Of a stretch of DNA of 64,000 nt, positions 14,708-33,999 are shown in pieces. The first letter of the stretch is position 1; each line of letters begins with the position of its first letter. Source of the stretch: an uncultured Candidatus Saccharibacteria bacterium (lineage in GTDB: Bacteria; Patescibacteriota; Saccharimonadia; Saccharimonadales; Saccharimonadaceae); contig CAMNFE010000001.1 of the NCBI GenBank assembly GCA_946537195.1, positions 4,435-68,434 of the forward strand. Reading direction: 5' to 3'. The notes beneath the pieces were generated by a model. The model made no database searches. It was not told where the DNA came from and worked only from the letters and a program-made list of their open reading frames with translations. The translations under genes and the position numbers were made by a program.

Positions 14708-15112
14708 ATGCCGATTATCAAATCCGCGAAGAAGGCTGCGCGTCAAGCTGTTAAGCGTCGCGACAACAATAAAGCGATCAAGAAGGTTATCCGCAACGCA
14801 TTGAAGGATTTCCGCAACAAACCAACTGCCGAAAAGATGGCAATCGTACAATCAGAGTATGACAAAGCCGTGAAAAAAGGCCTCATAAAGAAGAATACTG
14901 CAAGCCGCCGCAAGGCTAATCTTGCAAAGTGGGCAAAAGAACACAATGTTAAACTAGCTGCCAGCAAAAAGACCGCAGCAGAAAAAGCTCCAGCTAAGAA
15001 AGCTACAACCACTAAGACTACTGCGGCCAAAAAAGCTCCAGCAAAAAAGACTACTGCAGCTAAGAAACCAGCAGCAAAGAAAACTGCTACTAAAAAAGCA
15101 GCTGAAAAATAA
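14708..15112 (+). CDS. rpsT: 30S ribosomal protein S20 with a Lys/Ala-rich C-terminal extension
   Basis: MPIIKSAKKAARQAVKRRDNNKA... is the S20 core (~85 aa). It is followed by an AAKKAPAKKTTAAKKPAAKKTATKK tail. Confidence 0.9.
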   Translation: MPIIKSAKKAARQAVKRRDNNKAIKKVIRNALKDFRNKPTAEKMAIVQSEYDKAVKKGLIKKNTASRRKANLAKWAKEHNVKLAASKKTAAEKAPAKKATTTKTTAAKKAPAKKTTAAKKPAAKKTATKKAAEK

Positions 15113-16865: not shown

Positions 16866-16896
16866 AAAAATCTCGCCCCTAAAGGCGAGATTTTTT
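16866..16896. terminator. bidirectional intrinsic terminator
   Basis: aaaaatctcgcc/cctaaa/ggcgagattttt. It serves tRNA-Leu (+) and the end of the pilus operon (-). Confidence 0.75.
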
Positions 16897-16898
16897 AA

Positions 16899-18434
16899 TT
16901 AGTTGCTACGGTTGTTCGAGTTTGGACAGTTTCTTTCGGCCGTAGGTGTTGTTACGACGCGAGTACCATCCCAGCGGCTCTCTTCAAAGTAACAGTTATT
17001 TGTAACATAGAAGTCTTTTTGAACCTTATCGTCTTTGTTGTCTGGGTCATTTACTGCCAAAGCATAGTTTGCAATTGGGAAGTAAGTATCAACCATCTCG
17101 ATGCGGGCCTGAACACGGCGGAAGAGGTCGTTCGCGCGGCCAGTCGAGTCAACGATAGGTTGAACGTTTGCGAAATCGATCGTAGTACAACCAGAGGTTT
17201 CGCCTGCAGCCTTGTCCTTATAAATCGTATCGCTGTCGCGATCACAACTGCGCATTTCTACGCTAACTTCCGTTTCTGGGTCACCATAAGGCAAGTTAAG
17301 AACGAGGAAGAAAGTGGTGTAGTTGCGTTTGTTGTGACTTCCATAGTTGATAGGCTTAGGAACGAAAATGTCTGCCGTACAAGCGTAGCCATTAGCTGTC
17401 TCGATATTATTAGCAGTGAAACAGCGGACATCGAGCGGCGTATTTTGCGATTTCATTGCGCTGGTAGCGAATGGACCACCTTTCTCCGAGAACCTTGAAC
17501 CGGCGATATGGTTTGAGTAGTTATTTTCCGATACGCCGTAAAGGCTTGCCGAAGTAGGACGGAACGTGATGGTGCCACGGTTGGTGCGACCGTCTTTGGC
17601 GGAATAGAACTGGCTCATCTTAAAGTTCTTGGCGGTTTGAATTAAGGTAGCTTGGATAACTGAAGGGACGGCTGGCTTATCGGTAAAAGTATTTTTATAA
17701 TCATCGTCGGTTTTTGCGGTGGTTGGCTGATCTTCCTTCATGAAGCTGTTGTTGTCGGTGATTTTGCCGTTCATTGTAGGAACGGATGTGTAACGATGCC
17801 ATAGAGAAGGATCGATGCTGCCAGATTGGTTCTTTGTCTTCTCAAGGTTCTCACGACTGAACCAGCTAATAACAAGGCGGTTGACTTTATCGGTCTCTTC
17901 CTCGCTAGACGTACGTAACGGAATAATCTTGGTTGGATAGTTTTTAGTAAGTGTGGTGAGGTAATTTCTATTCTTTTGGGAGACTTTTACGCAAGTATAT
18001 GCCTGGTCGAAGGCTTGCGCTGTGCTGGAGATGTCGCCACTATCGCTTTTGGTTTGGATAATCGTTTCGTGATTATCTCGGTTATATCCCAGAAGTTCGC
18101 TAACCTTATCGCAATCTTCTGCAGTTGCGTCTACATCAGTAGTGAAGGCTTTTACATACTTCTTACAGTCAATTGAGCTGTTATTAATAACAAGGTTATC
18201 CTTAGCGTTGTTTAAACAGGTCTGATAACGCATTAATACGATTTTGGCATCCTCAATGCCAGCGAGGGCTGAGTTATATGCCGACTGCGACAGACTATAG
18301 TTCGTAGTGCGGCTGGTCTCCGAGAGCATTAAACGAATAAAGCTCAATGAAATAATACTAAGAAGTGTTGCCGTAAATATCACCACATAAATTGCGGCTG
18401 CACCCTTCTTTGTTTCTTTTTGCGTTGTCGACAT
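16899..18434 (-). CDS. PilX/GspK-like minor pilus component (large, 511 aa)
   Basis: I chose the start at ATG 18434, which has a GGAGAAAGG RBS and lies 1 nt after the upstream stop. The N-terminus KKGAAAIYVVIFTATLLSIISLSFIRLML lacks Glu5 and is followed by SQSAYNSALAGIEDAK, as in PilX_N-type proteins. Confidence 0.55.
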   Translation of the reverse strand: MSTTQKETKKGAAAIYVVIFTATLLSIISLSFIRLMLSETSRTTNYSLSQSAYNSALAGIEDAKIVLMRYQTCLNNAKDNLVINNSSIDCKKYVKAFTTDVDATAEDCDKVSELLGYNRDNHETIIQTKSDSGDISSTAQAFDQAYTCVKVSQKNRNYLTTLTKNYPTKIIPLRTSSEEETDKVNRLVISWFSRENLEKTKNQSGSIDPSLWHRYTSVPTMNGKITDNNSFMKEDQPTTAKTDDDYKNTFTDKPAVPSVIQATLIQTAKNFKMSQFYSAKDGRTNRGTITFRPTSASLYGVSENNYSNHIAGSRFSEKGGPFATSAMKSQNTPLDVRCFTANNIETANGYACTADIFVPKPINYGSHNKRNYTTFFLVLNLPYGDPETEVSVEMRSCDRDSDTIYKDKAAGETSGCTTIDFANVQPIVDSTGRANDLFRRVQARIEMVDTYFPIANYALAVNDPDNKDDKVQKDFYVTNNCYFEESRWDGTRVVTTPTAERNCPNSNNRSN

Positions 18435-18435
18435 A

Positions 18436-19305
18436 TTACCTTTCTCCATATTGGCTTGCGTCGCGCGATTCTCCCGTTGCGCGTACGGCAAAATTAAATT
18501 TATTAACAGCACAGTAATTAAAATCTTGGTTCGTAGCTTCGACAGAGGCGCTATACATCTGTTCTGTACCAGTACAGAAGTCGCCGTTCGAAAGAATATT
18601 AACACCTCCGCGCATCGTAGCTAAAATGAATGATCCGGAATAGAATATTTGGCCGGTAACATCATTCTGAGTAGCTGGAAGCACGACCATATCGTAAATA
18701 GCAAGATCAGTGTCGTCGTCCGCAATCAAGCTAACAACGCCATTGGCTGGAGTGTAAGTGAAATGAGTAGTCTTGAGCGTATTGCTATCCTCGTTCTGAC
18801 GCTCGCAGGCGACACGGTCGTTATCTGGGAAACGAGCAAATTTATATACAGTACCATTAATAGTGAAGGCATTATTTGTAACACCAGTTTCACGATATTC
18901 TGCAATAGTTGGAGCGGTATTCCAAACATAGGAATACATACCCGTACAGAATACACCACCAGTTTGAACGGTATTACCATTCGAATTAGTCGTGACGCGC
19001 GCAACTTCATTATAATAATTGCGCCATGCTTTTTTGATATCTGCAGCAGTAATTTGAGTTGAGTTTTGTTGCGCTTTTGGATTTACCTTTTCAACAATAG
19101 GCGAACCGCCTACTACGCGAGACAAGTCGTTGAGAATATCTCGACCAGTAGCATTGACTGCGCGAAGAGCCAAGCCTTTACGATAAATTTCCAAGACGCG
19201 CATCGTAAGAGTAGCGATACCCATCAATAATACTGCTAGGAATGTCATAGCGAGCATGAATTCGATAATAGTAAAGGCCTTCTTCTGTTGTTTCTGTTTT
19301 TTCAT
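18436..19305 (-). CDS. prepilin-type N-terminal domain pseudopilin (289 aa)
   Basis: MKKQKQQKKA/FTIIEFMLAMTFLAVLL: class III signal with Glu+5, but Ala at -1. GGAGG RBS. TAATG overlap with the upstream gene. Confidence 0.65.
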   Translation of the reverse strand: MKKQKQQKKAFTIIEFMLAMTFLAVLLMGIATLTMRVLEIYRKGLALRAVNATGRDILNDLSRVVGGSPIVEKVNPKAQQNSTQITAADIKKAWRNYYNEVARVTTNSNGNTVQTGGVFCTGMYSYVWNTAPTIAEYRETGVTNNAFTINGTVYKFARFPDNDRVACERQNEDSNTLKTTHFTYTPANGVVSLIADDDTDLAIYDMVVLPATQNDVTGQIFYSGSFILATMRGGVNILSNGDFCTGTEQMYSASVEATNQDFNYCAVNKFNFAVRATGESRDASQYGER

Positions 19306-20150
19306 TACTCAATTACCTCCGGATTGTATAAACGGATAATCGTGGTAATAGTGCTTGGCGCAATCGCTCCAACGCTGTGCCAGCAGGTACGAATATAGAA
19401 ATCAAAATAGTTCGAACGCATTGGATGTTGGTTATTGTCGCCAACAACGATAACGAATATACCTTCGGCATGATCGATAAGATTATAGATTTTCTTCTCT
19501 GCTAAAGAAGTCTCACTACTATCGGCACCTCGTGTGTCGCCTTGAATTTGACGCTTCAAGAGATCGTCGTCGTCGCTTAATCTGGATTCTTTGTAGACAA
19601 TGCGCGGGTAAACGATTGCAGGGCGAAGCACGTTGTTATTTATATGATCTTCGTCCAGTTCCCTAACGCCAACGATAATTTCCGAAATCATCGTAGTGTA
19701 AGAATCGTCACCGTAGCTAGTGTTAGAATCTGGAAGAATGAGGCGGGTATTAAGTGCGAAAGCATCGAACTGGCCTACCATACCATTATTGCGGTAGGCT
19801 TCTTCACAAGATGAGAGATGGTTGATATCAAACTTTGTTTCAACCGTGTTGCGCTCATTGTCATCGATAGTGTTAGCCTCTTGCGCAATCCCACGTAAAG
19901 CATCCCATAGTTGACGGAATTGGCTAGACTCTTTGTCTAGCTGACGTTCAGCGACGTAGCTCTGATGAATATAGCGGATAGCTTCAGCTTGGCCATCTAT
20001 CTCATTGCGCGCCATAGTATATTCAAGTGTACGTTGAGCATTATTTATACCGCTATTCATGAGATTAATTGTAATAATGGCAAGAACAGCAAAAATTGCA
20101 ACCGCCATCATTACCTCAATAATAGTGTCGCCGTGCTTTTTTAGTCGCAT
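19305..20150 (-). CDS. prepilin-type N-terminal domain pseudopilin (281 aa)
   Basis: MRLKKHG/DTIIEVMMAVAIFAVLAI: Gly-1 and Glu+5, but Asp at +1. AGGAG RBS. 10-nt overlap with the upstream gene. Confidence 0.6.
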   Translation of the reverse strand: MRLKKHGDTIIEVMMAVAIFAVLAIITINLMNSGINNAQRTLEYTMARNEIDGQAEAIRYIHQSYVAERQLDKESSQFRQLWDALRGIAQEANTIDDNERNTVETKFDINHLSSCEEAYRNNGMVGQFDAFALNTRLILPDSNTSYGDDSYTTMISEIIVGVRELDEDHINNNVLRPAIVYPRIVYKESRLSDDDDLLKRQIQGDTRGADSSETSLAEKKIYNLIDHAEGIFVIVVGDNNQHPMRSNYFDFYIRTCWHSVGAIAPSTITTIIRLYNPEVIE

Positions 20151-21160
20151 GATCTTACTCCTGAGTTTTCACCCTCACTTGCATCCTTAGCGATATCTAA
20201 GTTCATCAATTCTACGCCGCTCTGACTCATGGCGTTTCTTTTGATTTTTACCATACGACGAGCATTATTATAAGTTTGCGCATCACCAGAATCGACGCAA
20301 ATGTTCAGCTCAACTGATTGAAAATTAGCTTCAGTTAGATACCTATTAACGCCAAGATTATCAAGCGTGTTGCTATCTGTATATTTGACGCCACGGCCAT
20401 TATTTTCTTTATTAATATCTTCATACTTGATTAATTGCTCTGAACCATTCCTTAATCCTTTAATACCACCATTGTAAACATATGTGCGAATAGAACCGTC
20501 TCTTGGCGAGCGGAAAATTATCATTGTTTTCTCAATCGGAGTCCTGTCAACATTCTGCAATTTAGTCCCCCACTTGGTTTTCTGAATACGAGAATTATCA
20601 CCCGAGCGAACATAGCAGTTGCTGTCGCTACCAGGATCGCAGTGGAGAGATACGTTGTTTGCGTTTACTACGTCATGTAAAATAGCGATATCACTAAGAT
20701 TAGTGCTGACTGGGTCGCCCGCTTTTGCTCTTTGGCGAACAATTGTTTCGTAATCTCTTCCGAGGAGTTCGGTGGTTTCGATATATTCCTCATTGACGGA
20801 AACAACGGCGCCATAAACTACACAGTTTGTGCGACCGCGATACGATATACTATCAGGAGTTGTATTCATTTGACCCTTATAGTACGCTACAGCATCATCG
20901 TTTCCGATATCATTACCAACTAAGCCATAGCAATTTGACTCTTTGCTGTTCCGCTGAGAAATCTGCGTATCGGACACAAAAGAATACTGATCACGCATCA
21001 TGCTTACTATATCTTGGACGGCATCATTATAACGCTGCCTGGATATATTATCGCCAAGGCCACCAAGAACGCCAACCAGCAAAAGACCGCTGAGCGCCAA
21101 AAATAGCATTACTTCAATAATTGTGAAGCCCTTACGGAAAGCTCCCTTATTATTCGCCAT
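20141..21160 (-). CDS. prepilin-type N-terminal domain pseudopilin (339 aa from M8)
   Basis: MANNKGAFRKG/FTIIEVMLFLALSGLLL is a canonical G/FTxxE site. I chose the start at 21160 because TATAAT lies 6 nt upstream. Confidence 0.7.
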   Translation of the reverse strand: MANNKGAFRKGFTIIEVMLFLALSGLLLVGVLGGLGDNISRQRYNDAVQDIVSMMRDQYSFVSDTQISQRNSKESNCYGLVGNDIGNDDAVAYYKGQMNTTPDSISYRGRTNCVVYGAVVSVNEEYIETTELLGRDYETIVRQRAKAGDPVSTNLSDIAILHDVVNANNVSLHCDPGSDSNCYVRSGDNSRIQKTKWGTKLQNVDRTPIEKTMIIFRSPRDGSIRTYVYNGGIKGLRNGSEQLIKYEDINKENNGRGVKYTDSNTLDNLGVNRYLTEANFQSVELNICVDSGDAQTYNNARRMVKIKRNAMSQSGVELMNLDIAKDASEGENSGVRSCD

Positions 21161-21166
21161 AGTTTT

Positions 21167-21172
21167 ATTATA
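21167..21172 (-). promoter_or_regulatory. -10 hexamer TATAAT, leaderless start of the pseudopilin sub-operon
   Basis: TATAAT-aaaact-ATG(21160). It lies inside the longer ORF-track start. Confidence 0.4.
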
Positions 21173-21220
21173 CATTATCATAAGCGTTTTTGCGATTATT
21201 TTAGTGCTTTTTTGAAGCTA

Positions 21221-24200
21221 TTAATATCTTGACGGCAACTCTTTAGTATAGGTTGTAATAGCTTGATTGTAGCGACTCATCTGGTTAAAAGTCCAAAGAT
21301 AAGTATCCATGCCCATATCAAATATTTCGGCGCGCACAATAGAGTTATTTCCACTGCCGGCACCGGCCGTGCGATGTAATGTTAGCTTCTTAGTTATAGC
21401 TGGGCCATTGAAAATTAGAGAGCTATTACAATGATTGGCGTCTAGAGTGCCGATACTGGTCATTACGCCATTCTGGAAGGAGCTAAAGCTATCGTAAGCG
21501 CAGGTGTTAAGTTCATCAGTTATAATAATGGCGTCTATGCGCGTAACTTTATTGGTAATAAATACCTTATCAGCTATAATGATGTTTTTCCTGGCTTGAG
21601 CTAGACGATCCAGAGTAGGATCGGCATCGAACGATCCGTTCCTAGCGTCTCCGACAATAATGTTCTCATCAATTACAAAAGTACCCTTAACGTCATAGAC
21701 CTCCGTCATATCTACGAGAGAATCATCGAGGTTTTGACTCCCAAGGCGACTAGTATTATTGGCTGCCGAACCTGAACCGAGATAGGCATTTCCGATTACT
21801 TTGTGATGGATGATATTGTTCGAATCTCTATTGTTGTTTAACAAGTTCGGCAAATAGGCATACTTTTTGCCGCCTGCAAGAATACAATGAGTTGTAGAAT
21901 TGCCGAATGTACTACAAGACGATTCAGGCATAGCGCCAGTACTGGTCGCCGTGATTTCTCCTGAGGTATAACGAGTCCTGATACGATCAGCAAATTGCGA
22001 TACGGTCTTTTTACCCACTTCCCCTTCTCCGACGTTATCGCTCGAGCAGTTAGCGTTTGCCAATGTTTGCGTAGAGAAAGAACAAGTACTACTAGTATTA
22101 CTTGGGGTAGCAACTTTATTGATTTCATTGTTAAAACGAGGGCTATTGACGGTTATACCCGTGTTCCCAGTTTGGTAGCCGAAAGTGGCACCAGAGGCAA
22201 AAGCATGCGCCCCCTGCGTGTTCACTTTACCGAAGACACCATATTCAGACCATGAACCAAATGTGAATTTGCCAGTCGCGAGCTCTTTGGAGGTTGTTGT
22301 TGTAACAAAACCTTCAGCATTACCAGAAAATGCGTTTGAGCCTTCAACGCTAAATGTCGGGCGCTTCGCAACTGTATTACAGGTTAACGCAACCTTTTTA
22401 CTGCTACCTTCGTTGGCTTTAAGGGCAACATCATTCGCACCGGCGCCAGTAACGGATTCCATATCATATGCATCGTGGCTATCTGCAGGACTGACCGAGA
22501 TACGCGCGCAAACACGTGTGCCGATAGGTAAGGTATCTGGGACGGGTATATCAAAGCTAACGTGATCGCTGCCGGCTTCGGCAAGCTTCTTATTGTCCCT
22601 GCTGACCGTTCCTTTCGTGTTACCAGTTTGGTTTAGGACACCGTCATAACTTCCAGAACTAATCGGAGTATTGCCAAATTCGTTTCCGGCCAAGTCGCGA
22701 TAGAAGTATTCTACTCTTATCTTTGTTTTCTTCGTAATGGTCGCATAAGTATTAGACGAATCATCGTTACTAATTGCAGTATTCTTACGAGGCGTGACAT
22801 AAACTTTAGTCGAAACTGGCATTTTACTGCCGCCGTAAACTACGTGTGATCCGGCTTCGCTATAAATTGCTGGTTGAGCTTTGTAGTTAAATGGTATTTT
22901 AACACTAGCTTTAGCGGTATACTGAGGATTTTGAGCGTAAGTTCCGTTAGGGACTCGATTGACTATCTTGAGATTATTCCATTGGATACTTTGTGTAATT
23001 GTCGCCCCAACATCTGACGTCTTGCTCGTAAAGTCCACTGAACGACAGTCGTTTGAGCTAGTTGAACCAGCAATTTGATAATGATTATCTTTAAAAGTTG
23101 AGGCGTTCGGAATATTCTTACAACTATACGAATCCTTACTATGTTCAGTGCGATTAGTTGTAGTTATCGAGGCGACCGACGGAGATAAAGCATTTAATAC
23201 TACGTTGTTATTGGTTGGGAATCCACTAGTGCCAGTGCTCCACCAAGTTCTATTGTCGGAATATTTACGCGGTTGTCCTGCAGCAGAGGTAATATTTGGA
23301 ACGCTTGCGCCGAAGAGATATCCACTTGAAGCAGGGTTCCTCTCGCCCTTAGCATAGTAACGGCTTTTATAGGTTGTATTATTGAGCGAAGAAGTGTTAT
23401 TAACAGTATATTGCGCACCAGCACAGCCTTGGTAGCTAAAACGAATCGAATCACCAGGGCGTGCCCAGGTGTCGGCCGCACTAACCGTGTGACCAGCAGC
23501 CGAACTTAAAGTGTTAGCGTTAGTTGGACTATATTTATAGCTATCTACGCCATTTACGGATGCATTGGAGGCACCGATGCGTGCGATATTTTGGCCATTA
23601 AGAATGCCATATTTATACTCTGTTGCTAGCGCACAGGTTAATGGTTTTCTTTTAATCTTAATACAGGCTTTTGAATTCTCGTTGGTAGAAGTTACGCCAG
23701 TATCTGCATAGTATTTATCTGGATGCTGCAGATTCTCGCAAACAGTAGTAGATTCCTCTGGCATCAATTTAATCGTATAAGTGGTTGCCGGAACATTGAC
23801 CGAAGCGGCATTAACGTTAACGGTCGGCGTACGATTCCCTGCTCCGCCACTAGATACGCCACCGCTATTAGAGAACGTAATTCTCGGACGGAAAGAAAAG
23901 TTCTGCGAAACGCCACGACGGCGAATCGTATGATTGAAGGTGACTGAAGTGTCTCGACTATCAACCATTACATATTGGTTGTTATTAATCGTAAGTGTAC
24001 CGTCCCAATCTGAAGTGCCTTCATAAACTGTCCCATTTACTGTCGCTGAGGTTTTGCTCCTTGAATCGATTAGGCTTGGACGATAGACCTTAGCGCAGAC
24101 TTTAGGTCCTTTATGTTCGGAACTATCCGTCCAACCATGGCCGTTGGTGAGATTTTTATAACCAATTTGTTCGCAATACTCTGCTCCATTTTCTGCATCA

Positions 24201-25267
24201 TCTGGAATTTTGAAATTGCGAATAATAAAACCGTTCGAGTTAAAGTCGCCACCTGCGTTACCGAAACGATTAACGCCATCAACTTTTTTAATACTAGCTT
24301 TGCCATTCCTACAAGCGTTACCAAAGTTTGGCGCTGCGCTAGTTCTGGCGGTTCCACCGTTATTGTAGAAAGTTGTCGTACAACGACTATCATTCGTCCA
24401 GTCATTTAAATTAGTGTAATAATGCTTGAATGTTACCGTTTCTCCAGGATGAGCATTCACGCTGACTTTGGCCTGAGTTGTATTGTAGGCCGTTTCGGAA
24501 CCATTGCGAGTCTTGTTTTTAATTGTGCTACGCGGAGTAATGCTTGGGCGATCGGCCTGGATTAGGAATTTCAGCTTCGACCAACCACATCCACTACCGT
24601 TATAACAACGTCGGACCCAAATTGCACCTTCGCGATATGTTCCTTTATCTACCAGATTATTAGCACCATAGGCTTCGATATACTTCTCCATCTTAACTTC
24701 GATCTGAGCGGTACCAACTGGCTTTGAAAAGCCGCCGCCGAAGCTACTACTCCATGAACCATTTGTTCGTTTAAAATAATGCCCCCAGCCATTACTAGTC
24801 TCCCAGCCACCTTTATATTTGAAAATGTCCGTCTGCGTACTGCCGCAACCGTTATAGGTACAGATTCTGACATTGGTCGCATAAACCGCAGCGGCAGGCT
24901 GATGAATTTGCCCCTGCATGCCAATTTTAATCGTGCCCGTAGCTGGTGCAAAATAATTTAGGTAAAGTTCATATTTACTGCCGTTGTTTGTAGACTTATA
25001 GCCTTTGCCATCTGAATAGAGGCCGGTTATATAGTAAATACCACGCTGAGAACCGCCACAGGCCCAGACTGGGTTTGCATGCTGAGGATAAGAGCCAGGA
25101 TAGTCGATCTCGCCGAACTTTTTATATGCTGTTTTTGGAGAATTCGGGATAAAAGTATTGTTGGCGTTACTGATACAGTCTGCATAAGTGTCTTGGCCAT
25201 TGATACCAAAAACCAAGAGCGCAGCGGCAACGATAAAGCCAAATATAAAGATTTTTTTAATTTTCAT
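21221..25267 (-). CDS. giant secreted protein (1348 aa), paralog of 26245-30522; unknown family
   Basis: Signal peptide MKIKKIFIFGFIVAAALLVFGINGQDTYA and no other TM helix. Composition is rich in N/T/S/G/Y/C. GGGAGAAGG RBS, 3 nt after the upstream stop. Blocks shared with the paralog include ARPGDSIRFSYQGCAGAQY, YATITKKT, ASVKIPFNYK, VCARISVSPADSHD, SVEGSNAFSG, FGSWSEYG, SGATFGYQTG and a terminal ELPSRY. Confidence 0.85.
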   Translation of the reverse strand: MKIKKIFIFGFIVAAALLVFGINGQDTYADCISNANNTFIPNSPKTAYKKFGEIDYPGSYPQHANPVWACGGSQRGIYYITGLYSDGKGYKSTNNGSKYELYLNYFAPATGTIKIGMQGQIHQPAAAVYATNVRICTYNGCGSTQTDIFKYKGGWETSNGWGHYFKRTNGSWSSSFGGGFSKPVGTAQIEVKMEKYIEAYGANNLVDKGTYREGAIWVRRCYNGSGCGWSKLKFLIQADRPSITPRSTIKNKTRNGSETAYNTTQAKVSVNAHPGETVTFKHYYTNLNDWTNDSRCTTTFYNNGGTARTSAAPNFGNACRNGKASIKKVDGVNRFGNAGGDFNSNGFIIRNFKIPDDAENGAEYCEQIGYKNLTNGHGWTDSSEHKGPKVCAKVYRPSLIDSRSKTSATVNGTVYEGTSDWDGTLTINNNQYVMVDSRDTSVTFNHTIRRRGVSQNFSFRPRITFSNSGGVSSGGAGNRTPTVNVNAASVNVPATTYTIKLMPEESTTVCENLQHPDKYYADTGVTSTNENSKACIKIKRKPLTCALATEYKYGILNGQNIARIGASNASVNGVDSYKYSPTNANTLSSAAGHTVSAADTWARPGDSIRFSYQGCAGAQYTVNNTSSLNNTTYKSRYYAKGERNPASSGYLFGASVPNITSAAGQPRKYSDNRTWWSTGTSGFPTNNNVVLNALSPSVASITTTNRTEHSKDSYSCKNIPNASTFKDNHYQIAGSTSSNDCRSVDFTSKTSDVGATITQSIQWNNLKIVNRVPNGTYAQNPQYTAKASVKIPFNYKAQPAIYSEAGSHVVYGGSKMPVSTKVYVTPRKNTAISNDDSSNTYATITKKTKIRVEYFYRDLAGNEFGNTPISSGSYDGVLNQTGNTKGTVSRDNKKLAEAGSDHVSFDIPVPDTLPIGTRVCARISVSPADSHDAYDMESVTGAGANDVALKANEGSSKKVALTCNTVAKRPTFSVEGSNAFSGNAEGFVTTTTSKELATGKFTFGSWSEYGVFGKVNTQGAHAFASGATFGYQTGNTGITVNSPRFNNEINKVATPSNTSSTCSFSTQTLANANCSSDNVGEGEVGKKTVSQFADRIRTRYTSGEITATSTGAMPESSCSTFGNSTTHCILAGGKKYAYLPNLLNNNRDSNNIIHHKVIGNAYLGSGSAANNTSRLGSQNLDDSLVDMTEVYDVKGTFVIDENIIVGDARNGSFDADPTLDRLAQARKNIIIADKVFITNKVTRIDAIIITDELNTCAYDSFSSFQNGVMTSIGTLDANHCNSSLIFNGPAITKKLTLHRTAGAGSGNNSIVRAEIFDMGMDTYLWTFNQMSRYNQAITTYTKELPSRY

Positions 25268-25269
25268 TA

Positions 25270-26202
25270 CTAGCCTTCTCCCTGCGTCGATTCTATTTCT
25301 TCCGATAATCTTTGGTCAAAAATGGTTTTATATTCATCAGCTTTCTCTTTATTGCCATTTTTCTTTTCTAGCTTATAAATAGTCTCCGCCGAAAGCGAAT
25401 TAGGATGCATACTTTCGGCTTTATACGCATCTGATATAGCTTGATCAAGTTCAGCTTTACCAGAGAAATTTTCATCGATAGCGATTGCGCGCTGTAGATA
25501 TAGAGCGGCTTTAGCTTCATCGGTTTTACTATTAGCAATCAGGTCATCATATATGGCCATGCCACCCGCATAATCGCCTTCTATAAATTTATTATTAGCA
25601 TTATCGCTATCTAATAAAGCCTGAAATACTTTTTCGTTATAAACCTCGTTGTTATGTTCCTTGTTGGCCATGGTTATTTTTTGAATTAGGAAAAAAGCAC
25701 CAATACCGATGAGGATAAGAGCAATTACACCAATCACAACACCACGACGAATAATATCGCGATTATCACGAATATCAAAAGCAAACTGTTCGCGCTTCTG
25801 ACGTCTTTCTTCACGTCGCTCTGAACGCTTTTGCCGTGAAGCTTCTTTTTGCTCGGCGCGCTTTTCATTTTCAAGTTTTTTAGCCGCTAAACGCTCTGCT
25901 TCGGCTTTACGACGTTCTTCTTCGCGTTTGCGCTTCTCGGCACCTTTGACGTTAACAAAAAGACTCTTGCCGTCTTTGCTCTCTATCTTGCTTGAATGAA
26001 ATTTAATATCTTCTTTGCTGATAGGGACGCCATCAATCTCAACGGTCTCACGTTTTTTACGAACTTCTTCTTCCTTGTTCGCCTGATTGTCCACGTGCTC
26101 ATCCGATGCACTCTTAATATTAGGCGACGAAAAACTAGCTTCGCTTGTGTTTTCTTCTTTCTTGCCCACCTCTCGTGAAGGCCCTGCGTCATTAACGCTC
26201 AT
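25270..26202 (-). CDS. single-pass membrane protein (310 aa): acidic N-terminus, K/E/R-rich charged helix, TM helix, TPR-like C-terminal domain; paralog of 30512-31573
   Basis: Shared motifs are SPNIKSA[SA]DE, ETVEIDG[VI]PI..EDI.F and LFVNV.GAEKR. TM helix VVIGVIALILIGIGAFFLI. Confidence 0.7.
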   Translation of the reverse strand: MSVNDAGPSREVGKKEENTSEASFSSPNIKSASDEHVDNQANKEEEVRKKRETVEIDGVPISKEDIKFHSSKIESKDGKSLFVNVKGAEKRKREEERRKAEAERLAAKKLENEKRAEQKEASRQKRSERREERRQKREQFAFDIRDNRDIIRRGVVIGVIALILIGIGAFFLIQKITMANKEHNNEVYNEKVFQALLDSDNANNKFIEGDYAGGMAIYDDLIANSKTDEAKAALYLQRAIAIDENFSGKAELDQAISDAYKAESMHPNSLSAETIYKLEKKNGNKEKADEYKTIFDQRLSEEIESTQGEG

Positions 26203-26208
26203 GCTAAT

Positions 26209-26217
26209 ATTTTAGCA
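26209..26217 (-). promoter_or_regulatory. extended -10 promoter (TGCTAAAAT), leaderless start of cassette 2
   Basis: TGCTAAAAT-attagc-ATG(26202), the same architecture as at 31580-31588. Confidence 0.55.
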
Positions 26218-26244
26218 CGAATTGGGCCTTCTTTTCGATAGTTA

Positions 26245-29200
26245 TTAGTAACGAGTTGGAAGTTCGCGAGAGTAGGTTGTAACGGCTTGGCTATAGCGAG
26301 ACATTTGGATATAGCTCCAGAAGTAAGTATTCATATTCATATCAAATGTTTCAGCGCGAACCGCAGTATTAGCACCCTTATCTGAGCCGCCCGTACGGTT
26401 AAGTATAATCTTCTTTGCCATTACTGGCGCATTGAACTGTACATGATTGTTACACATATTGGAGTTCATCATGACAGAACCAGATTCACCGCCAATTACA
26501 GCTTTCCTACCCTTAATGAAGTCTTCGTAGGTGTTGTATGCACAGGTGTTAATCTCGTTCGCAATCAATATCGCATCAACGCGTTCTACCTTATTGGTGA
26601 GATAGATTTTATCAGCAACGAAGACACGCATAACGGATTGACCGAGGTTAGTGTAAGTCGGATCATCGATAAAGTTGCTGGCATCACCGTCACCAATCAA
26701 GACATCACCGTCGAGGACGTAAGTACCACTTACCTCGTGGACGCTAGTAGCGTTGAATTGGCCGTTATCGAAGTTCGCTTTGTAGTAAACGTTCAACTTA
26801 TTATTGTTCGGACCGGTGCCGATTCTTTGTACGCCATCACCCCAATAGGCGTCGCCGTTTACCTTAAGGTGGTTAATGCCGTTTTCATCCCAGTCATGGT
26901 TAATCCAAGCTGGCATAAATGCGTACTTCGTAGTACTCGAGCCGTTGGTAGAGTCTTTTGCCTCAACGCATTTGACATTAGCGTACTGAGAATATCCACC
27001 TCTACCAAAGTAGTCATACGACCATCTACCAGCATCACCTGTAGTACATTGATTTTCGTAGTCATTCTTCTGAACGGCGCTAGCACTACCTGAAGTGAAA
27101 CGATCAAGAATACGGTTACGGAAGTCGCGCGCAGATGTCTTACCCATTCCCGCTTTACCAATTGTGTCGGTGGCTGTATTACAGTTTGAGTTGATAAAGG
27201 TTTGGGTCGCGTAGGTACAAGTTGTCGTGTTACTGGTTTTAGCTACGTTGCCACTATTAGAGCGAGTTTGATTTCTGACTATACCTGATGTGCCGGTTTC
27301 ATAACCGAAGGTTGCACCAGATGCTGTACCATGAATTCCGTCACTATCTACGAGACCATACAAACCATATTCTGACCATGATCCGAATAGATATTTAGTA
27401 GAACCGAATTGCTTGGTGAAGCGAGAAGTTATGAAGCCTTTACCATTACCGCTACCACTGTAGGCGTTAGAACCTTCAACGCTCATGGTTGGGAGTTTCG
27501 ATACGGTATAACATGCGCGTACAGTCAAGGTGTTATTAGGGCTCCAGATTGGATATTTCGAATCACTCGATAGAGCTATCTGCGCAATACTGGCTGCCGA
27601 ATTATCACCGTCGTGGCTATCAAATGGAGATACGCTAATTTCACCACAAACACGATCGCCTAGGTCAAGCTCGTCAGGAATATCAATAGTAATCGTATCC
27701 CAGACGCGACCATCTTCTATACTTTTAATTGTCTTATTTTCATTATCGGCGTCATTGTTTTTATCACCAGCCGTGCCGTTAAGACGGCCCGTGCGGTTCA
27801 GGATCCAGACTTCCTCTTTCTCGGAACCGGCGCCATAGTATGCCGAACAGCCACCAAAATAGCCTGAAGATTTACATTTCCTTGATCCGCCTGATGTTTC
27901 GACATACCATCTAGTCTTAATATGGGTAGGTTTCGTGATAGTTGCATATTCGTTCTTCGAGCTATCAGTAGAAACGTTAGTATTAGTACGACGCATAACC
28001 GTGACACCAGTATCGACGTTGAGTGTAGTACCGCGATAGACTACTTTACCGTCACGAGCAGAGCTACCACCTCTACGCTCAGCATGTGGAGCGAGTTTGT
28101 AGTTATACGGAATCTTTACGCTAGCTTTAGCGCCGTTATTGCTAGAGCCATTATGGACACCGTCGATCTGGTTGGTTGAAATCCTGTTATCGTCTACGCC
28201 TTGGTGATTAATGGCTTTAATCTTACGGTCCGTCCAGGTGACGGTCTGTGATATGACGGTACCGACATCGAGTAATCCGGTTGCACAGTTAGTACTCATA
28301 TCTGGCGAGCTGCTTGATGCAGTTTGACCTTTTATTCTACCCGATACTTGATAGAAGTTGTTTGGATTCGATGGACCATTACTGATCATACAATTATAGT
28401 TTTTATAAATTGAATTCGGTTTTTGAGGTGAAGTAAAGCTTGCATCAAACTTATCGTATGGGAATTTTTTGCTACCCGTAACATATTGATCAGCACTGTT
28501 GACTGTGCTAGTCCAAGTACGTGGGCTATGGAACGTAGTAGCGTTTTGACCAGAGACATTGTAGCGCGTTACCTGAGAATCAAAGAGGTACTGATTCTTT
28601 TTGGCGTCAGTATTAGCTTTCGGGTTAGTAGTGGTGCCAGACGCTCCATATTTTGTGACGTAAGATGCTTTATTTAAGAGATTCGGATATTGAGCTCCCG
28701 CGCAGAATTTGTAGGAATATTGAATTAAGTCGCCTGGACGAGCATAGAGGTCTGGAGCATCTTTTACGACACCCGTTCTTTCATAGTCCCTTGGCGCATG
28801 CGGAGAAGTCTTGGTGATACCCGTGGTTGCGTTGTTGACGCTGATATAGCCAACATTCCAGCCCTTATTGTAGCCATATTTATATTCGTCATAGTTAAAG
28901 TCTCCGCCACAGGACGCCTCGGCGCGTTGAATGGTCACACATTTTTCATCAGTATACGTCATATTAGAGGTCTTCCCTGCGTTAAGGGCCGTATTCTTTT
29001 CGTCATTTTTTGTCTGGAAGTGCAACTTTTGACAGAAGGTGACCTTTTGTTTTGGATGAATTGTGCCCTTAATTTCATTAGTAATCTGGTGCGACTGGTT
29101 CTTCTTCTTCGACGTCCAGGTACCTTTCTGGACGGTGCTTTTCTTGTTCACGCCATAATAGTTGCCTGTATCCTTAACGACGGTTTCATAAGATACATCT

Positions 29201-30522
29201 ACATTAAAATTGTCGTTATCAGTGCCTTTATAGCCATCAAGATTAATTACTTTGCCGCGCGTAATAGTATGCACGAATTTAACAGTAAATTTACCGTCTG
29301 TAGTGATAACGACATTATTGCTGCCTTTCGGATTGTCGCGCTCAGTCACAGCAGTACCGCTACCTTTATCGGCATAGACCTTGGTATTCGCAGAAAATTC
29401 AACCTGGCGATTTACGCGATATGAACTCAGACAGACTTCGTCAGTAAGGCCTGTCTTATCGTCGGTGGCTCTATCGGTATTCCTCACTTTATAATAGCTT
29501 AGCCTACTACAGTAGGTATATTTAGTGCCAGGAATAGGCGTAATTGGAACTGTATCGTTAAGAGTAGTGGTATCACCGATTTTATTAGAATGCCAATCTT
29601 TTTTAGTGTTATTAGGCGCTTTTGGAGTAGTGTTTTCTGATGTTTTGCGAGGTTTGGTTTCAAGCGGAGTCGTCACCCTAAAAGAACCGCTATCGCTGTT
29701 TTCATTGCGCCTTACTGTATGATCCCATTTTAAAGTAATACTATTTTTAGTGGTGTATTCGGGTTTATTCGGATCAGTAGATCCGTCACTGTTTTTATTT
29801 TTCGAAGTAGTCGCACTAAATTTAGCCACTTTATTAGTTGGGTAGCAGAACCAAGATAGCGAGTTGTAATCGCTCTTTTTGAGCGTGCCAACCTTAGTAC
29901 CGCTAGAGTTATATTTGATCATCTCATCCGGATAATCTTTTATCGCCTGCTCATATCTGCTCTTAGCGGTTGATTTTGTATAAGCGTCAATAGCAGTACC
30001 GCCGTCACCATTTTTATCTTTAAACTTAAATCCTTTAATTTTAGCCGTAGGGACGTCATGAATACTACCGCCACTACCGCTAGTATAGCTCGTACTACGA
30101 CTACCCACCTGGCCACGTCCACCATGTCCGTTATATTTGAACGAACCACCACGCGCAGAAACGTAGAACCAGCTGCTTCCAGGGTTGCCTGGCTCATCAC
30201 TCTCATAAATATCATAACCAAGGTGCATAAAACCACTACTACACCCCTTAATAACAGTTAAACCCGAGGTGCTATTTCCGACGAAATTAATTGCACCAGA
30301 CCCAAATCTCTCATACCACACCCAAGAAAAGCCACCTGAATCGCAGACACATGAGGACCACATAGCGTTGCCACATACGGCACAACCGCCACTACCGCTA
30401 GTGGCGCCGCCACCACCAGCATATGCATTCATACTAGTTTGCGAGCTTACTATTAAGCCAGCCACACTCAGAGTAGCAAGGCCGGCCGAGAAGTATAATG
30501 CTTTTTTAAGTTTATTCTTCAT
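26245..30522 (-). CDS. giant secreted protein (1425 aa), paralog of 21221-25267; unknown family
   Basis: Signal peptide ...SQTSMNAYA followed by the Gly/Cys-rich stretch GGGGATSGSGGCAVCGNAMWSSCVCDSGG. AAGGAG RBS 8 nt upstream, and the start overlaps the upstream gene by 11 nt. The C-terminal ~900 aa are collinear with the 1348 aa paralog and end in ELPTRY. Confidence 0.85.
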   Translation of the reverse strand: MKNKLKKALYFSAGLATLSVAGLIVSSQTSMNAYAGGGGATSGSGGCAVCGNAMWSSCVCDSGGFSWVWYERFGSGAINFVGNSTSGLTVIKGCSSGFMHLGYDIYESDEPGNPGSSWFYVSARGGSFKYNGHGGRGQVGSRSTSYTSGSGGSIHDVPTAKIKGFKFKDKNGDGGTAIDAYTKSTAKSRYEQAIKDYPDEMIKYNSSGTKVGTLKKSDYNSLSWFCYPTNKVAKFSATTSKNKNSDGSTDPNKPEYTTKNSITLKWDHTVRRNENSDSGSFRVTTPLETKPRKTSENTTPKAPNNTKKDWHSNKIGDTTTLNDTVPITPIPGTKYTYCSRLSYYKVRNTDRATDDKTGLTDEVCLSSYRVNRQVEFSANTKVYADKGSGTAVTERDNPKGSNNVVITTDGKFTVKFVHTITRGKVINLDGYKGTDNDNFNVDVSYETVVKDTGNYYGVNKKSTVQKGTWTSKKKNQSHQITNEIKGTIHPKQKVTFCQKLHFQTKNDEKNTALNAGKTSNMTYTDEKCVTIQRAEASCGGDFNYDEYKYGYNKGWNVGYISVNNATTGITKTSPHAPRDYERTGVVKDAPDLYARPGDLIQYSYKFCAGAQYPNLLNKASYVTKYGASGTTTNPKANTDAKKNQYLFDSQVTRYNVSGQNATTFHSPRTWTSTVNSADQYVTGSKKFPYDKFDASFTSPQKPNSIYKNYNCMISNGPSNPNNFYQVSGRIKGQTASSSSPDMSTNCATGLLDVGTVISQTVTWTDRKIKAINHQGVDDNRISTNQIDGVHNGSSNNGAKASVKIPYNYKLAPHAERRGGSSARDGKVVYRGTTLNVDTGVTVMRRTNTNVSTDSSKNEYATITKPTHIKTRWYVETSGGSRKCKSSGYFGGCSAYYGAGSEKEEVWILNRTGRLNGTAGDKNNDADNENKTIKSIEDGRVWDTITIDIPDELDLGDRVCGEISVSPFDSHDGDNSAASIAQIALSSDSKYPIWSPNNTLTVRACYTVSKLPTMSVEGSNAYSGSGNGKGFITSRFTKQFGSTKYLFGSWSEYGLYGLVDSDGIHGTASGATFGYETGTSGIVRNQTRSNSGNVAKTSNTTTCTYATQTFINSNCNTATDTIGKAGMGKTSARDFRNRILDRFTSGSASAVQKNDYENQCTTGDAGRWSYDYFGRGGYSQYANVKCVEAKDSTNGSSTTKYAFMPAWINHDWDENGINHLKVNGDAYWGDGVQRIGTGPNNNKLNVYYKANFDNGQFNATSVHEVSGTYVLDGDVLIGDGDASNFIDDPTYTNLGQSVMRVFVADKIYLTNKVERVDAILIANEINTCAYNTYEDFIKGRKAVIGGESGSVMMNSNMCNNHVQFNAPVMAKKIILNRTGGSDKGANTAVRAETFDMNMNTYFWSYIQMSRYSQAVTTYSRELPTRY

Positions 30523-31573
30523 CTTCGTCGCTCCTTATTTCTTCGCCTTCTATTTGCTCCCCTTCACCTTCCTCTTCATCATCTACAGGCTCTTCTTCTG
30601 GAGCTTCTTCTGGATCATCATATTGCTTGGCAATTTCCTCGTATTTACTGCCCTGCGAATCGTCGCCTTTCGAATAGTAGAGACGAGATAAGTTGCTATA
30701 GATATAGTGTTTAACGAATGATTTTTCAGAAGTATTAACTAGCTTAAGATTCTGATTAATACCTTCGTCAATATCTTTTGTAGCGCCATAAACGTTATAA
30801 TAGAAAGATTGAATCATGACCTTAAGGTCTGGATTCTGTTCGGAGTTTATCTTATCTTGCAAGAATTCTAGTTCTGAATCTACGCCCTGTTCGATACCGA
30901 TAGTTGAGGCTTCGTCAATGAGCTTATTAAAATTAGTCTCAATCTGCTGACCTCTGTATTCTTTTTGAACAGTAGTCGCCATACGCTTTTCGTATTCGGC
31001 AGGTTCGATAATGTTTATGCGAATTGCATTATAACCAACAAGAATAATCGCTAAAGCTACGATTCCGAGAGTAATAAACTTGTGTTTTCCGCCAAAGAAG
31101 AAATTACCGACTTTCTTCGCTCTTTGTACAGATCTTTCATGTCTCGCTTGACGGGCTTTTCGAGCCTGTTCTTTTTTGACTTGTCTTTCATGTTTAGCAG
31201 CCGCCTGTTTCTTTGCCTCCTCTTCGGCGTGGCGCTTCTCTTCGAGCTCCTTCTGCTTTTCTTTCTCGACCTTTTCTTTTTCTTTAGCCTCTTTCGCTTT
31301 TTTGCGCTCGGCTTCACGGGCGCGTTTTTCGGCACCCTCAACATTAACAAAAAGATCACCTGTATCTTTTTTCTTGATATTCTCGGAGCGGAACTGTATG
31401 TCCTCCTCCGCAATAGGAATACCATCGATTTCGACGGTTTCACCCGGTTTACTTGTATCCGCTGCCGAAGTATCCTCATTAATCGGCTCATCAGCAGCGC
31501 TCTTAATATTCGGCGACAGAGAACCGGTCTCCGTTACGCCCTCCTCTCGCATATCTGCGTCTTTAGCGCTCAT
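30512..31573 (-). CDS. single-pass membrane protein (353 aa): acidic N-terminus, K/E-rich charged helix, TM helix, helical C-terminal domain, acidic tail
   Basis: Paralog of 25270-26202. TM helix FITLGIVALAILVGYNAI. C-terminal DDEEEGEGEQIEGEEIRSDEDEE. Confidence 0.7.
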   Translation of the reverse strand: MSAKDADMREEGVTETGSLSPNIKSAADEPINEDTSAADTSKPGETVEIDGIPIAEEDIQFRSENIKKKDTGDLFVNVEGAEKRAREAERKKAKEAKEKEKVEKEKQKELEEKRHAEEEAKKQAAAKHERQVKKEQARKARQARHERSVQRAKKVGNFFFGGKHKFITLGIVALAIILVGYNAIRINIIEPAEYEKRMATTVQKEYRGQQIETNFNKLIDEASTIGIEQGVDSELEFLQDKINSEQNPDLKVMIQSFYYNVYGATKDIDEGINQNLKLVNTSEKSFVKHYIYSNLSRLYYSKGDDSQGSKYEEIAKQYDDPEEAPEEEPVDDEEEGEGEQIEGEEIRSDEDEE

Positions 31574-31579
31574 GCTTCT

Positions 31580-31588
31580 ATTTTAGCA
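31580..31588 (-). promoter_or_regulatory. extended -10 promoter (TGCTAAAAT), leaderless start of cassette 1
   Basis: TGCTAAAAT-agaagc-ATG(31573), 36 nt below the rny stop. Confidence 0.55.
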
Positions 31589-33598: not shown

Positions 33599-33999
33599 TT
33601 CTCGCTCACTTCCCTTGTATTCTCGTCGATATACTTAATTTCAATGGTTTTGCGTTGTTCCGGCAAAACATCTTGGACACTCTGTCCCCATTCAACAATA
33701 GTGACCGTTTTTGGATCACTAATGGCTTCAATTAAATCTTCTGCCATAATTCCAGGGTCGTTTAAACGATAGAAATCGTAGTGGACAAGACGATAGTTTT
33801 CTCCGTTATATTCCTTAGAAAGCGTAAATGATGGCGAAGTTACATCCGCTTTTACGCCAAGACCTTTCGCGATTCCGCGCGTTAATGTGGTCTTACCGGC
33901 GCCAACATCGCCGAGTAGCTCCAAAACTAGTGGCGCTTTAAGCGTCTTACCGAGTTTTTGACCATATTTAAGCATTTCCTGTTCGGAATGGATTAACAT
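33595..33999 (-). CDS. tsaE: tRNA t6A37 biosynthesis ATPase TsaE
   Basis: P-loop GDVGAGKTTLTRG, SPSFTL and HYDFYRL. The ATG overlaps the comEC stop (ATGTTAA). Confidence 0.85.
   Translation of the reverse strand: MLIHSEQEMLKYGQKLGKTLKAPLVLELLGDVGAGKTTLTRGIAKGLGVKADVTSPSFTLSKEYNGENYRLVHYDFYRLNDPGIMAEDLIEAISDPKTVTIVEWGQSVQDVLPEQRKTIEIKYIDENTREVSEK

Follow-up and report, generated by a model that had tools for sequence, protein, structure and literature searches.

A paired transmembrane protein and giant secreted protein, conserved beside type IV pilus genes of Saccharibacteria

An uncultured Candidatus Saccharibacteria bacterium (assembly GCA_946537195.1, contig CAMNFE010000001.1) carries, within the 64,000-nucleotide stretch analyzed here and called the window, a gene cluster in which two giant secreted proteins are encoded directly ahead of minor pilins of the type IV pilus (T4P). 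Eight tightly packed open reading frames (ORFs) were confirmed on the minus strand, at window positions 16899-31573, in the order partner A, giant A, partner B, giant B, three prepilins and a PilX/GspK-like protein. This is the order of co-directional genes given by an earlier sequence-only reading of the window. That reading had also described the genes as packed with overlaps or gaps of 40 nucleotides (nt) or less; the overlaps and short gaps are there, but one of the gaps is 42 nt. From 5' to 3' the junctions are an 11-nt overlap, a 42-nt gap, a 2-nt gap, a 39-nt gap, a 10-nt overlap, a 1-nt overlap and a gap of ~1 nt. The pilus-linked module formed by a partner and a giant is real, conserved and previously undescribed.

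The giants are paralogs of each other (31% identity over ~1200 amino acids (aa), E 2e-140). Both start with a Sec-type signal, and a hydropathy scan found no further hydrophobic segment or transmembrane (TM) helix beyond it in either protein, the maximum 19-residue hydropathy past residue 45 being 0.85 and 0.93. Asn, Thr, Ser and Gly together make up ~39% of each giant, and each has 24 Cys. Signal peptides, lack of a TM anchor and a composition rich in these residues had all been read from the sequence, as had the lack of a recognizable family; these descriptions hold, and searches with Pfam, NCBIfam, PDB sequences and Foldseek gave no family. Neither giant matches any Pfam or NCBIfam model at E<=1, and 40 diverse members of the family to which they belong contain no Pfam domain. 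No SLH domain, LPXTG or other sorting signal, or wall-binding domain was detected in the window giants (Pfam and NCBIfam) or in those 40 members (Pfam), and the giants end at ...RELPxRY without a hydrophobic segment, so that the combination of a sorting motif and a TM helix is absent. A known S-layer or wall-anchored family was rejected on these grounds. A polymorphic toxin was rejected as well, since the giants have a conserved C-terminus and a variable N-terminus, the reverse of the arrangement in polymorphic toxins. Orthologs of giant A at 85% and 41% identity retain the gene order.

The two partners are likewise paralogs (51% identity over 73 N-terminal aa, E 2e-17), and because giants and partners are both paralogous pairs, the locus is a tandem duplication of a two-gene module of partner plus giant. 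The ectodomains of partners A and B give no BLASTP alignment with each other. Each partner has a TM helix, at residues 166-184 in partner A (window 31022-31078) and 155-173 in partner B (25684-25740); in partner A a conserved cytoplasmic N-terminal motif and a Lys/Glu-rich segment precede this one helix, and an ectodomain resembling tetratricopeptide repeats (TPR) follows it. There are 10-12 Lys and Arg residues before the helix and 3-5 after it (exactly 10 versus 5 in partner A), and this positive charge ahead of the helix indicates an N-in/C-out topology, with the C-terminal ~140-170 aa facing outward. The partners are not TPR lipoproteins of the pilotin type, as they have a long cytoplasmic region, one TM helix and no lipoprotein signal. 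A profile of the partner ectodomain matches small TM proteins that bear a Pfam TPR and are encoded upstream of the family members linked to pilM described below (hhalign probability 95.6%, E 1.2e-8). The N-terminal ~90 aa of the partners share the motif SPNIKSA.DE … ETVEIDG[IV]PI..EDI.F.S..I..KD..LFVNV.G, which recurs in the partners of many Saccharibacteria loci and is missing from the short TM-TPR partners of the pilM-linked members; partners of the window lineage have gained a conserved cytoplasmic N-terminal domain of 150-165 aa.

The prepilin-type motifs reported for the next three genes (G/FTIIE, G/DTIIE, A/FTIIE) were confirmed in the sequence as KG/FTIIE, HG/DTIIE and KA/FTIIE. Minor pilin 1 matches N_methyl (E 1.1e-3) and TIGR01708 gspH (E 3.4e-4), and minor pilin 2 matches TIGR01707 gspI (E 5.9e-6), all below the curated cut-offs; the gspH and gspI matches cover mainly the N-terminus, and minor pilin 3 has weak N-terminal matches only. 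Homologs of minor pilin 1 follow pilD in complete T4P loci, homologs of minor pilin 2 are also found in T4P loci (E ~1e-27 to locus L037), and the third position is conserved there. The H/I/J/K identity of the minor pilins is assigned by gene order and by the Southlakia proteins in equal positions. The PilX-like protein has a hydrophobic N-terminal helix, GAAAIYVVIFTATLL, without the G-F-T-x-x-E motif, and no direct Pfam or PDB sequence match; in an alignment of nine orthologs a large insertion is followed by conserved C-terminal strands (DSTGRANDLFRRVEARIE, KDFYVTxNC). In Southlakia the fourth gene after pilD, SEML1_0116, encodes a GspK-type pilin domain together with a galactose-binding-like domain (Wang et al. 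2023, Table S2; PMC10633639) and is taken to be the equivalent of PilX1.

A profile of the conserved C-terminal ~830 aa of the giants, used in an exhaustive hidden Markov model search, retrieved 2012 cluster representatives at E<=1e-3 and 1504 at E<=1e-10. In these proteins the variable region before the conserved part spans from ~290 to ~1400 aa. Word-indexed homolog searches returned few proteins (2, 7 and 49, with 2 relatives for the first), all of them called "hypothetical protein" and assigned to Candidatus Saccharibacteria, apart from one partial fragment labelled Bacteroidaceae, possibly mis-binned; these searches yielded names and sources, and no function. The 41 giant-homologous loci taken from GTDB species genomes have rumen, gut, oral and groundwater origins; wherever a taxon name is given it is Saccharibacteria, and the others are unnamed metagenome-assembled genomes. 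The family is large, previously unnamed and apparently specific to Saccharibacteria.

These 41 loci were fetched by giant homology alone, without selection for pilus genes; ORFs were called in them locally, and the queries were the window proteins and the T4P proteins of CP011211 (Saccharibacteria GW2011_GWC2_44_17, L037 in our numbering). Of ~34 informative loci, 19 have a family member as the immediate upstream neighbor either of the minor pilins or of the pilM that heads a T4P locus. In ten of them the giant is followed directly by the four minor pilins (L008, L014, L019, L021, L028, L029, L036, L038, L039, L043), as it is in the window and in L044, the locus of a close relative. In the other nine (L030-L035, L037, L040, L041) the family member is directly upstream of pilM-N-O-B-T-C-A-D and the minor pilins; it is 38 nt from pilM in L037, and most of the nine loci come from different species-level genomes. 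The pilM-linked members are shorter (672-816 aa) and, where upstream sequence exists, are usually preceded by a small TM or TM-TPR protein. The co-occurrence of giant and minor pilins, which the sequence-only reading had proposed as a check on itself, is thus conserved in ten further loci, with nine more at pilM. Adjacency is retained between members only 24-37% identical, on the same strand and with gaps of a few to ~40 nt. An upstream RNase Y and a tandem pair of giants are further traits of several loci with a giant and minor pilins, the module is duplicated in L030, and some genomes hold both unlinked and linked copies (L008 with L012, L014 with L026). In some rumen Saccharibacteria two or three giants stand in tandem at loci without pilus genes (L009 7925-20634, L020 3982-12235, L013 1135-9818), and in L009 and L020 a partner-like gene of 249 aa follows the last giant.

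Pairing with a TM-TPR protein is common to the window-type and pilM-linked lineages, and for this reason we regard it as ancestral. The synteny indicates an ancestral state with a TPR partner plus family member heading the T4P locus; in the window lineage the pilM-pilD block is found elsewhere, and the module has become larger and been duplicated.

The most constant part of the family is its extreme C-terminus. Of 152 family representatives, 132 end exactly in [RK]E[LIMV][APST]x[RK][YF]-COOH; among the other 20 there are ~15 close variants of this tail, and the remainder are apparently truncated fragments. The short pilM-linked members end in TTELPPR[YLF], and giant A has almost the same tail as giant B. 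Within the 275-aa C-terminal domain, the last 26 residues hold 12 of the 25 columns that are invariant or nearly so. This most conserved stretch of the domain is also the one modelled with least confidence, and its fixed end, extreme conservation and lack of intramolecular packing are as would be expected of a docking peptide.

Structures were predicted with AlphaFold2 (AF2). The model of giant B residues 530-1348 (819 aa) has a predicted local distance difference test score (pLDDT) of 84.9 and a predicted template modelling score (pTM) of 0.70. It opens with ~500 all-beta residues, which in the model may be read as tandem immunoglobulin (Ig)-like beta-sandwich domains; a linker that is modelled poorly leads on to a mixed alpha/beta domain of ~250 aa, and the final 15 residues have pLDDT <50. 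The C-terminal domain alone (275 aa), modelled from an alignment of 37 trimmed fragments, reached pLDDT 82.9 and pTM 0.83, again with pLDDT <50 for the last 15 residues. Foldseek comparison of the 819-aa model with PDB and viral libraries gave generic matches to Ig-like tandem domains (TM-score <=0.16), namely Cpe0147 repeats, arrestin, complement MG domains, integrin legs and an archaeal S-layer protein. As these matches are generic, homology to arrestin, complement or S-layer proteins was rejected. Against PDB the C-terminal domain has no significant neighbor; the best one, an ice-binding beta-helix (E 0.25, TM-score 0.2-0.3), gives the modelled domain a faint resemblance to a beta-solenoid. 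Sequence searches of PDB, run with profiles for the conserved region, for the C-terminal domain and for the PilX-like protein, gave no match under E=1.

It had been suggested that the giants be compared with the PilY1 beta-propeller and with Ig-like folds. The Ig-like part of that expectation found its generic matches, but the propeller did not: no propeller and no PilY1/PilC structure occurs among the 50 PDB matches listed. With no PilY1/PilC match in Pfam and no propeller in the model, the giants are not PilY1/PilC homologs, and the notion that they are PilY1-like by descent or fold is not borne out. Some PilY1 proteins carry a vWA domain. A vWA match in the 766-aa member directly upstream of pilM in L037 (8120-10420, residues 45-111; E 1.4e-4) was set aside, since its 22.6 bits lie under the cut-off of 23.8 and three other short members have none.

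The limits of the cluster are summarized with its features in Table 1. For the PilX-like gene the mechanical ORF is 568 aa, and the start adopted here (18434) is that of the 511-aa gene called in L044. A terminator-like hairpin begins 4 nt past its stop codon, and no minus-strand hairpin of comparable stem length was found inside the cluster, including the junction between giant B and the first pilin. At the other end RNase Y, on the same strand, ends 51 nt upstream of the cluster, so the transcript may begin farther up. The genes of the cluster are real and functional, with homologs in many genomes and ratios of nonsynonymous to synonymous substitution rates (dN/dS) of 0.04-0.11 against the close relative.

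Table 1. Features of the partner, giant and minor pilin cluster (window coordinates)
Feature	Coordinates	Strand	Basis
Partner A (353 aa)	30512..31573	-	ORF; paralog of partner B
Giant A (1425 aa), secreted, multi-domain; signal peptide residues 1-35	26245..30522	-	ORF
Giant A hypervariable segment (residues 151-600)	28723..30072	-	Comparison with L044
Giant A invariant C-terminal tail (...SQAVTTYSRELPTRY-COOH)	26248..26292	-	Family C-termini
Partner B (310 aa), architecture as partner A	25270..26202	-	ORF
Giant B (1348 aa); signal peptide residues 1-29	21221..25267	-	ORF; paralog of giant A
Giant B family-defining conserved C-terminal region (residues 530-1348)	21224..23680	-	AF2, profile search
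Giant B C-terminal domain (275 aa), mixed alpha/beta	21224..22048	-	AF2 model
Giant B 15-aa tail (...QAITTYTKELPSRY), low model confidence	21224-21268	-	AF2 model
Minor pilin 1 (346 aa), KG/FTIIEVM, GspH/FimU-like	20141..21181	-	N_methyl and gspH matches below cut-off
Minor pilin 2 (281 aa), HG/DTIIEVM, GspI/PilV-like	19305..20150	-	gspI match below cut-off
Minor pilin 3 (289 aa), KA/FTIIEFM, GspJ/PilW-like	18436..19305	-	Gene order
PilX/GspK-like protein (511 aa)	16899..18434	-	Start from L044; alignment of 9 orthologs
Terminator-like hairpin at cluster end	16866..16895	-	13-bp stem, then T run

Compared with L044, the whole cluster diverges faster than the remainder of the genome, and the N-terminal half of giant A diverges most. 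Housekeeping neighbors are 97-99.8% identical in amino acid sequence (dN/dS 0.003-0.04); the partners are 91-97% identical, the minor pilins and the PilX-like protein 89-93%, giant B 94% and giant A 85%, with dN/dS <0.15 for each of these. Residues 151-600 of giant A are only 71-79% identical, with a synonymous rate (dS) of 1.5-2.0 and dN/dS <=0.15. The flanking housekeeping genes have dS of ~0.3-0.5, and since dS in the giant A segment is 3-4 times this local background, imported sequence is suggested. Fast divergence of the cluster is what would be expected of exposed, host-facing or phage-facing proteins.

Taken as sequence evidence, the gene neighborhoods indicate that the family is likely associated with the T4P system. 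For the giants themselves we favor, by analogy and with about an even chance of being right, a role as pilus-associated adhesins, that is, as a non-homologous functional counterpart of PilY1/PilC or MshQ. In PilC/PilY1 the last ~10 residues add a strand to PilK, and the same strand addition is predicted, not shown, for the non-homologous MshQ of the Vibrio MSHA pilus, a large protein (~1200 aa) encoded beside pilIJK homologs (Ellison et al. 2026; PMC13533445). In the arrangement that we propose, the module of a bitopic TM-TPR partner and a giant secreted protein, duplicated ahead of T4P minor pilins in GspH-I-J-K order, would act as follows. After Sec export the fast-evolving N-terminal half of the giant would face outward and bind the host surface, the tandem Ig-like beta-sandwiches would form a stalk, the conserved beta-solenoid-like C-terminal domain would be the base, and the invariant, unstructured last ~12 residues would serve as a docking peptide. 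The preferred receptor for this tail would be the interface of the PilX/GspK-like and PilW-like proteins in the priming complex, reached by beta-strand addition as in PilC/PilY1, and the outward TPR domain of the partner would hold or deliver the giant. The unlinked paralogous modules elsewhere in related genomes might then be alternative adhesins for one minor-pilin set. Docking at the tip is preferred because the architecture parallels that of PilY1 and MshQ and because the invariant tail implies a shared receptor; three elements of this picture, an extracellular adhesin role, a place at the pilus tip and the identity of the tail receptor, are inferred. A broader and tentative proposal is that Saccharibacteria may have replaced PilY1 with interchangeable giant tip adhesins, which would have their own TM-TPR chaperones and share one invariant C-terminal peptide fitting the single essential T4P-1 priming complex, host recognition being set by the complement of giants and by recombination of their N-terminal halves.

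Several points weigh against a tip adhesin. In ~15 loci no pilus gene occurs within 10 kb of the module of partner and giant. Since TPR domains commonly bind extended peptides, C-terminal tails among them, the partner TPR could be the docking site of the tail instead. If the pilM-pilD block is excised just once, the pilM-adjacent arrangement becomes the minor-pilin-adjacent one, so the two configurations are not independent and adjacency to the minor pilins does not count as separate evidence. Large insertions in PilK homologs often go together with a strand provided in cis (Ellison et al. 2026; PMC13533445), and the PilX-like protein, to judge by its large insertion and conserved C-terminal strands, would fit that pattern. 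Finally, the T4P-1 locus of Southlakia (SEML1_0104-0116) has pilM as its first gene, immediately behind ychF, with no family member there (PMC10633639); a giant thus does not head the T4P-1 locus of all Saccharibacteria.

In the main rival explanation, possible but less likely than the tip adhesin, the giant is a cell-surface adhesin that acts independently of the pilus. The TM-TPR partner would capture the C-terminal peptide and so anchor the giant to the membrane for adhesion at short range, and the module would be co-expressed with the T4P only for their common use in host attachment. Partner and giant are always kept together, including in those ~15 loci, and this reading would account both for the constancy of the pair and for the many unlinked copies. 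The N-in/C-out partner has a TPR-like ectodomain, and TPR domains commonly bind extended peptides. The stalk, moreover, is like that of the Gram-positive wall adhesins Cpe0147 and AgI/II, and additional close-proximity adhesins have been proposed to act after tethering by the pilus (Grossman et al. 2025; PMC12206443). The tail, however, is nearly invariant across the family, even between paralogs in one genome, while the ectodomains of partners A and B do not align by BLASTP and those of the two lineages match only by profile; near-identical tails paired with such dissimilar ectodomains favor a shared, conserved receptor. A family member also keeps its place within the operon upstream of pilM, 38 nt away in L037 and recurring in nine loci.

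An envelope-structural role for the giants, as an S-layer, a wall-spanning portal or a sheath for the pilus in a monoderm cell with the TPR partner resembling a pilotin (PilF/PilW/Tgl), appears improbable. It would account for a gene that heads pilMNO beside a TPR protein, and TPR pilotins do assist secretin assembly in diderm T4P. Yet no secretin was detected among the window ORFs scanned, nor any SLH or other wall-binding domain; the N-terminal halves vary in length and sequence, with several paralogs per genome, unlike a conserved conduit; and the partner is bitopic in the membrane and lacks the lipoprotein character of a pilotin. The Foldseek match to the archaeal Ig-domain S-layer protein 8c8o (E 4.8e-4, TM-score 0.10), which might be cited in its favor, is no better than the matches to arrestin or complement MG domains. 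It is very unlikely that the giants have no functional link with the pilus and are unrelated secreted proteins that neighbor its genes by inherited order. Many copies are indeed unlinked, and both linked configurations could be derived from one ancestral arrangement by a single rearrangement; against this, adjacency has been kept, with short gaps and on the same strand, among members 24-37% identical from rumen, gut, oral and groundwater sources, and no comparable hairpin separates giant B from the first pilin.

Comparison with known systems sets the proposed pilus-associated role in context. Like PilY1/PilC of Pseudomonas, Neisseria and Myxococcus, the giants are large non-pilins with a Sec signal, encoded with minor pilins, with a variable N-terminus, a conserved C-terminus and a conserved extreme C-terminal end, the segment that in PilC/PilY1 locks to PilK as a strand (PMC13533445). 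Unlike them, the giants show no sequence or fold relationship to PilY1/PilC, being modelled as beta-sandwiches and a beta-solenoid-like domain versus a seven-bladed propeller; their genes lie upstream of the minor pilins or pilM and not after pilX, a TM-TPR partner is always present, and there are extra unlinked paralogs. MshQ offers the best precedent for a tip protein other than PilY1. The giants resemble it as large non-PilY1 proteins syntenic with pilIJK homologs, a functional class and not one of shared ancestry, although no homology to it was detected with NCBIfam and Pfam, no partner has been described for it, and the organisms, envelope type and gene position differ. The Gram-positive Ig-like stalk adhesins Cpe0147 and antigen I/II share a tandem beta-sandwich stalk (Foldseek probability 0.99 for Cpe0147), but the match is generic (TM-score 0.16/0.33, 7% identity), the giants lack LPXTG or any other wall-sorting signal, and nothing in these adhesins corresponds to the C-terminal domain of the giants. 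The partners recall the TPR accessories PilF/PilW/Tgl and TadD and the PilY1 helper TfcP, in being small extracytoplasmic accessories encoded with a pilus, with TPR-like repeats, and serving one large component; they differ in being bitopic, in not being lipoproteins, in having no secretin to pilot and in carrying an extra cytoplasmic N-terminal domain.

Within the phylum, the question of a host-binding pilus has been addressed in Nanosynbacter lyticus TM7x, where PilX2, a protein of the second pilus that bears a propeller, has been put forward as a PilY1-like adhesin and is needed for normal host binding (PMC12206443). PilX1 and PilX2 are pilin-like proteins with an added domain (propeller or jelly-roll), unlike the separate giant proteins described here; the PilX-like gene of the window holds the fourth minor-pilin position, as SEML1_0116 does. 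The four genes after pilD, positional equivalents of the window minor pilins, are essential in Southlakia (PMC10633639), and pilV1 and pilW1 could not be deleted in TM7x (PMC12206443). The giant family is not mentioned in either of these pilus studies.

A few other features of the window deserve mention. The scan of window ORFs revealed no pilM, no pilC and no other core T4P machinery. An orphan PilB-type ATPase (T2SSE, E 7e-90) is encoded at 52724-54334 on the plus strand, ~21 kb from the cluster, with RimK, ribosomal protein L19 and RNase HII as neighbors and no pilM, pilC or pilT beside it. A 719-aa ORF on the minus strand (12390-14549) coincides with a patch of GC content 0.51, compared with ~0.42, and has no Pfam match. 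Its globular N-terminus gives way to ~400 aa of repeats rich in Pro, Ala and Glu, and the protein ends in …AFQIPGM. In L036, L038 and L039 the PilX-like gene has, ~2 kb downstream of it, a homolog ending in …AFHIPGM (the L043 sequence stops too early), and the position of this gene by the pilin cluster is thus conserved. Between it and the cluster, at 14708-15112 on the plus strand, is a 134-aa basic protein with a long Lys/Ala-rich C-terminal extension (…AKKAPAKKTTAAKKPAAKK…), which by eye, and not from a scan against family libraries, we take to be possibly ribosomal protein S20. On the other side of the cluster, comEC (33993-35348, minus strand) contains an in-frame TGA at 34722-34724 (…NFAKK*FGKISRF…). 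The stop occupies the identical codon position in the close relative L044, L001 has Ile there in an intact ComEC of 430 aa, and tblastn aligns the entire protein in one frame through the stop, which could mean a shared pseudogene, a split gene or read-through.

How ultra-small episymbionts find and hold their hosts is a central open question for Saccharibacteria and for the wider Candidate Phyla Radiation. The T4P is essential for Saccharibacteria, yet the only component so far linked, and that tentatively, with host specificity is PilX2 of T4P-2 in TM7x, which belongs to a non-essential pilus of a single strain. The analysis presented here defines a large unannotated family with an obligatory partner, genomically tied to essential T4P-1 genes. 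The architecture and the divergence pattern of the giants are those expected of a host-facing adhesin, and the giants are predicted to be good candidates for host-recognition parts. Should the tail dock on the minor pilins, beta-strand addition at pilus tips would hold as a rule in a monoderm phylum too and would take in a third, unrelated family of adhesins; host-range determinants would then be sought in the variable halves of the giants.

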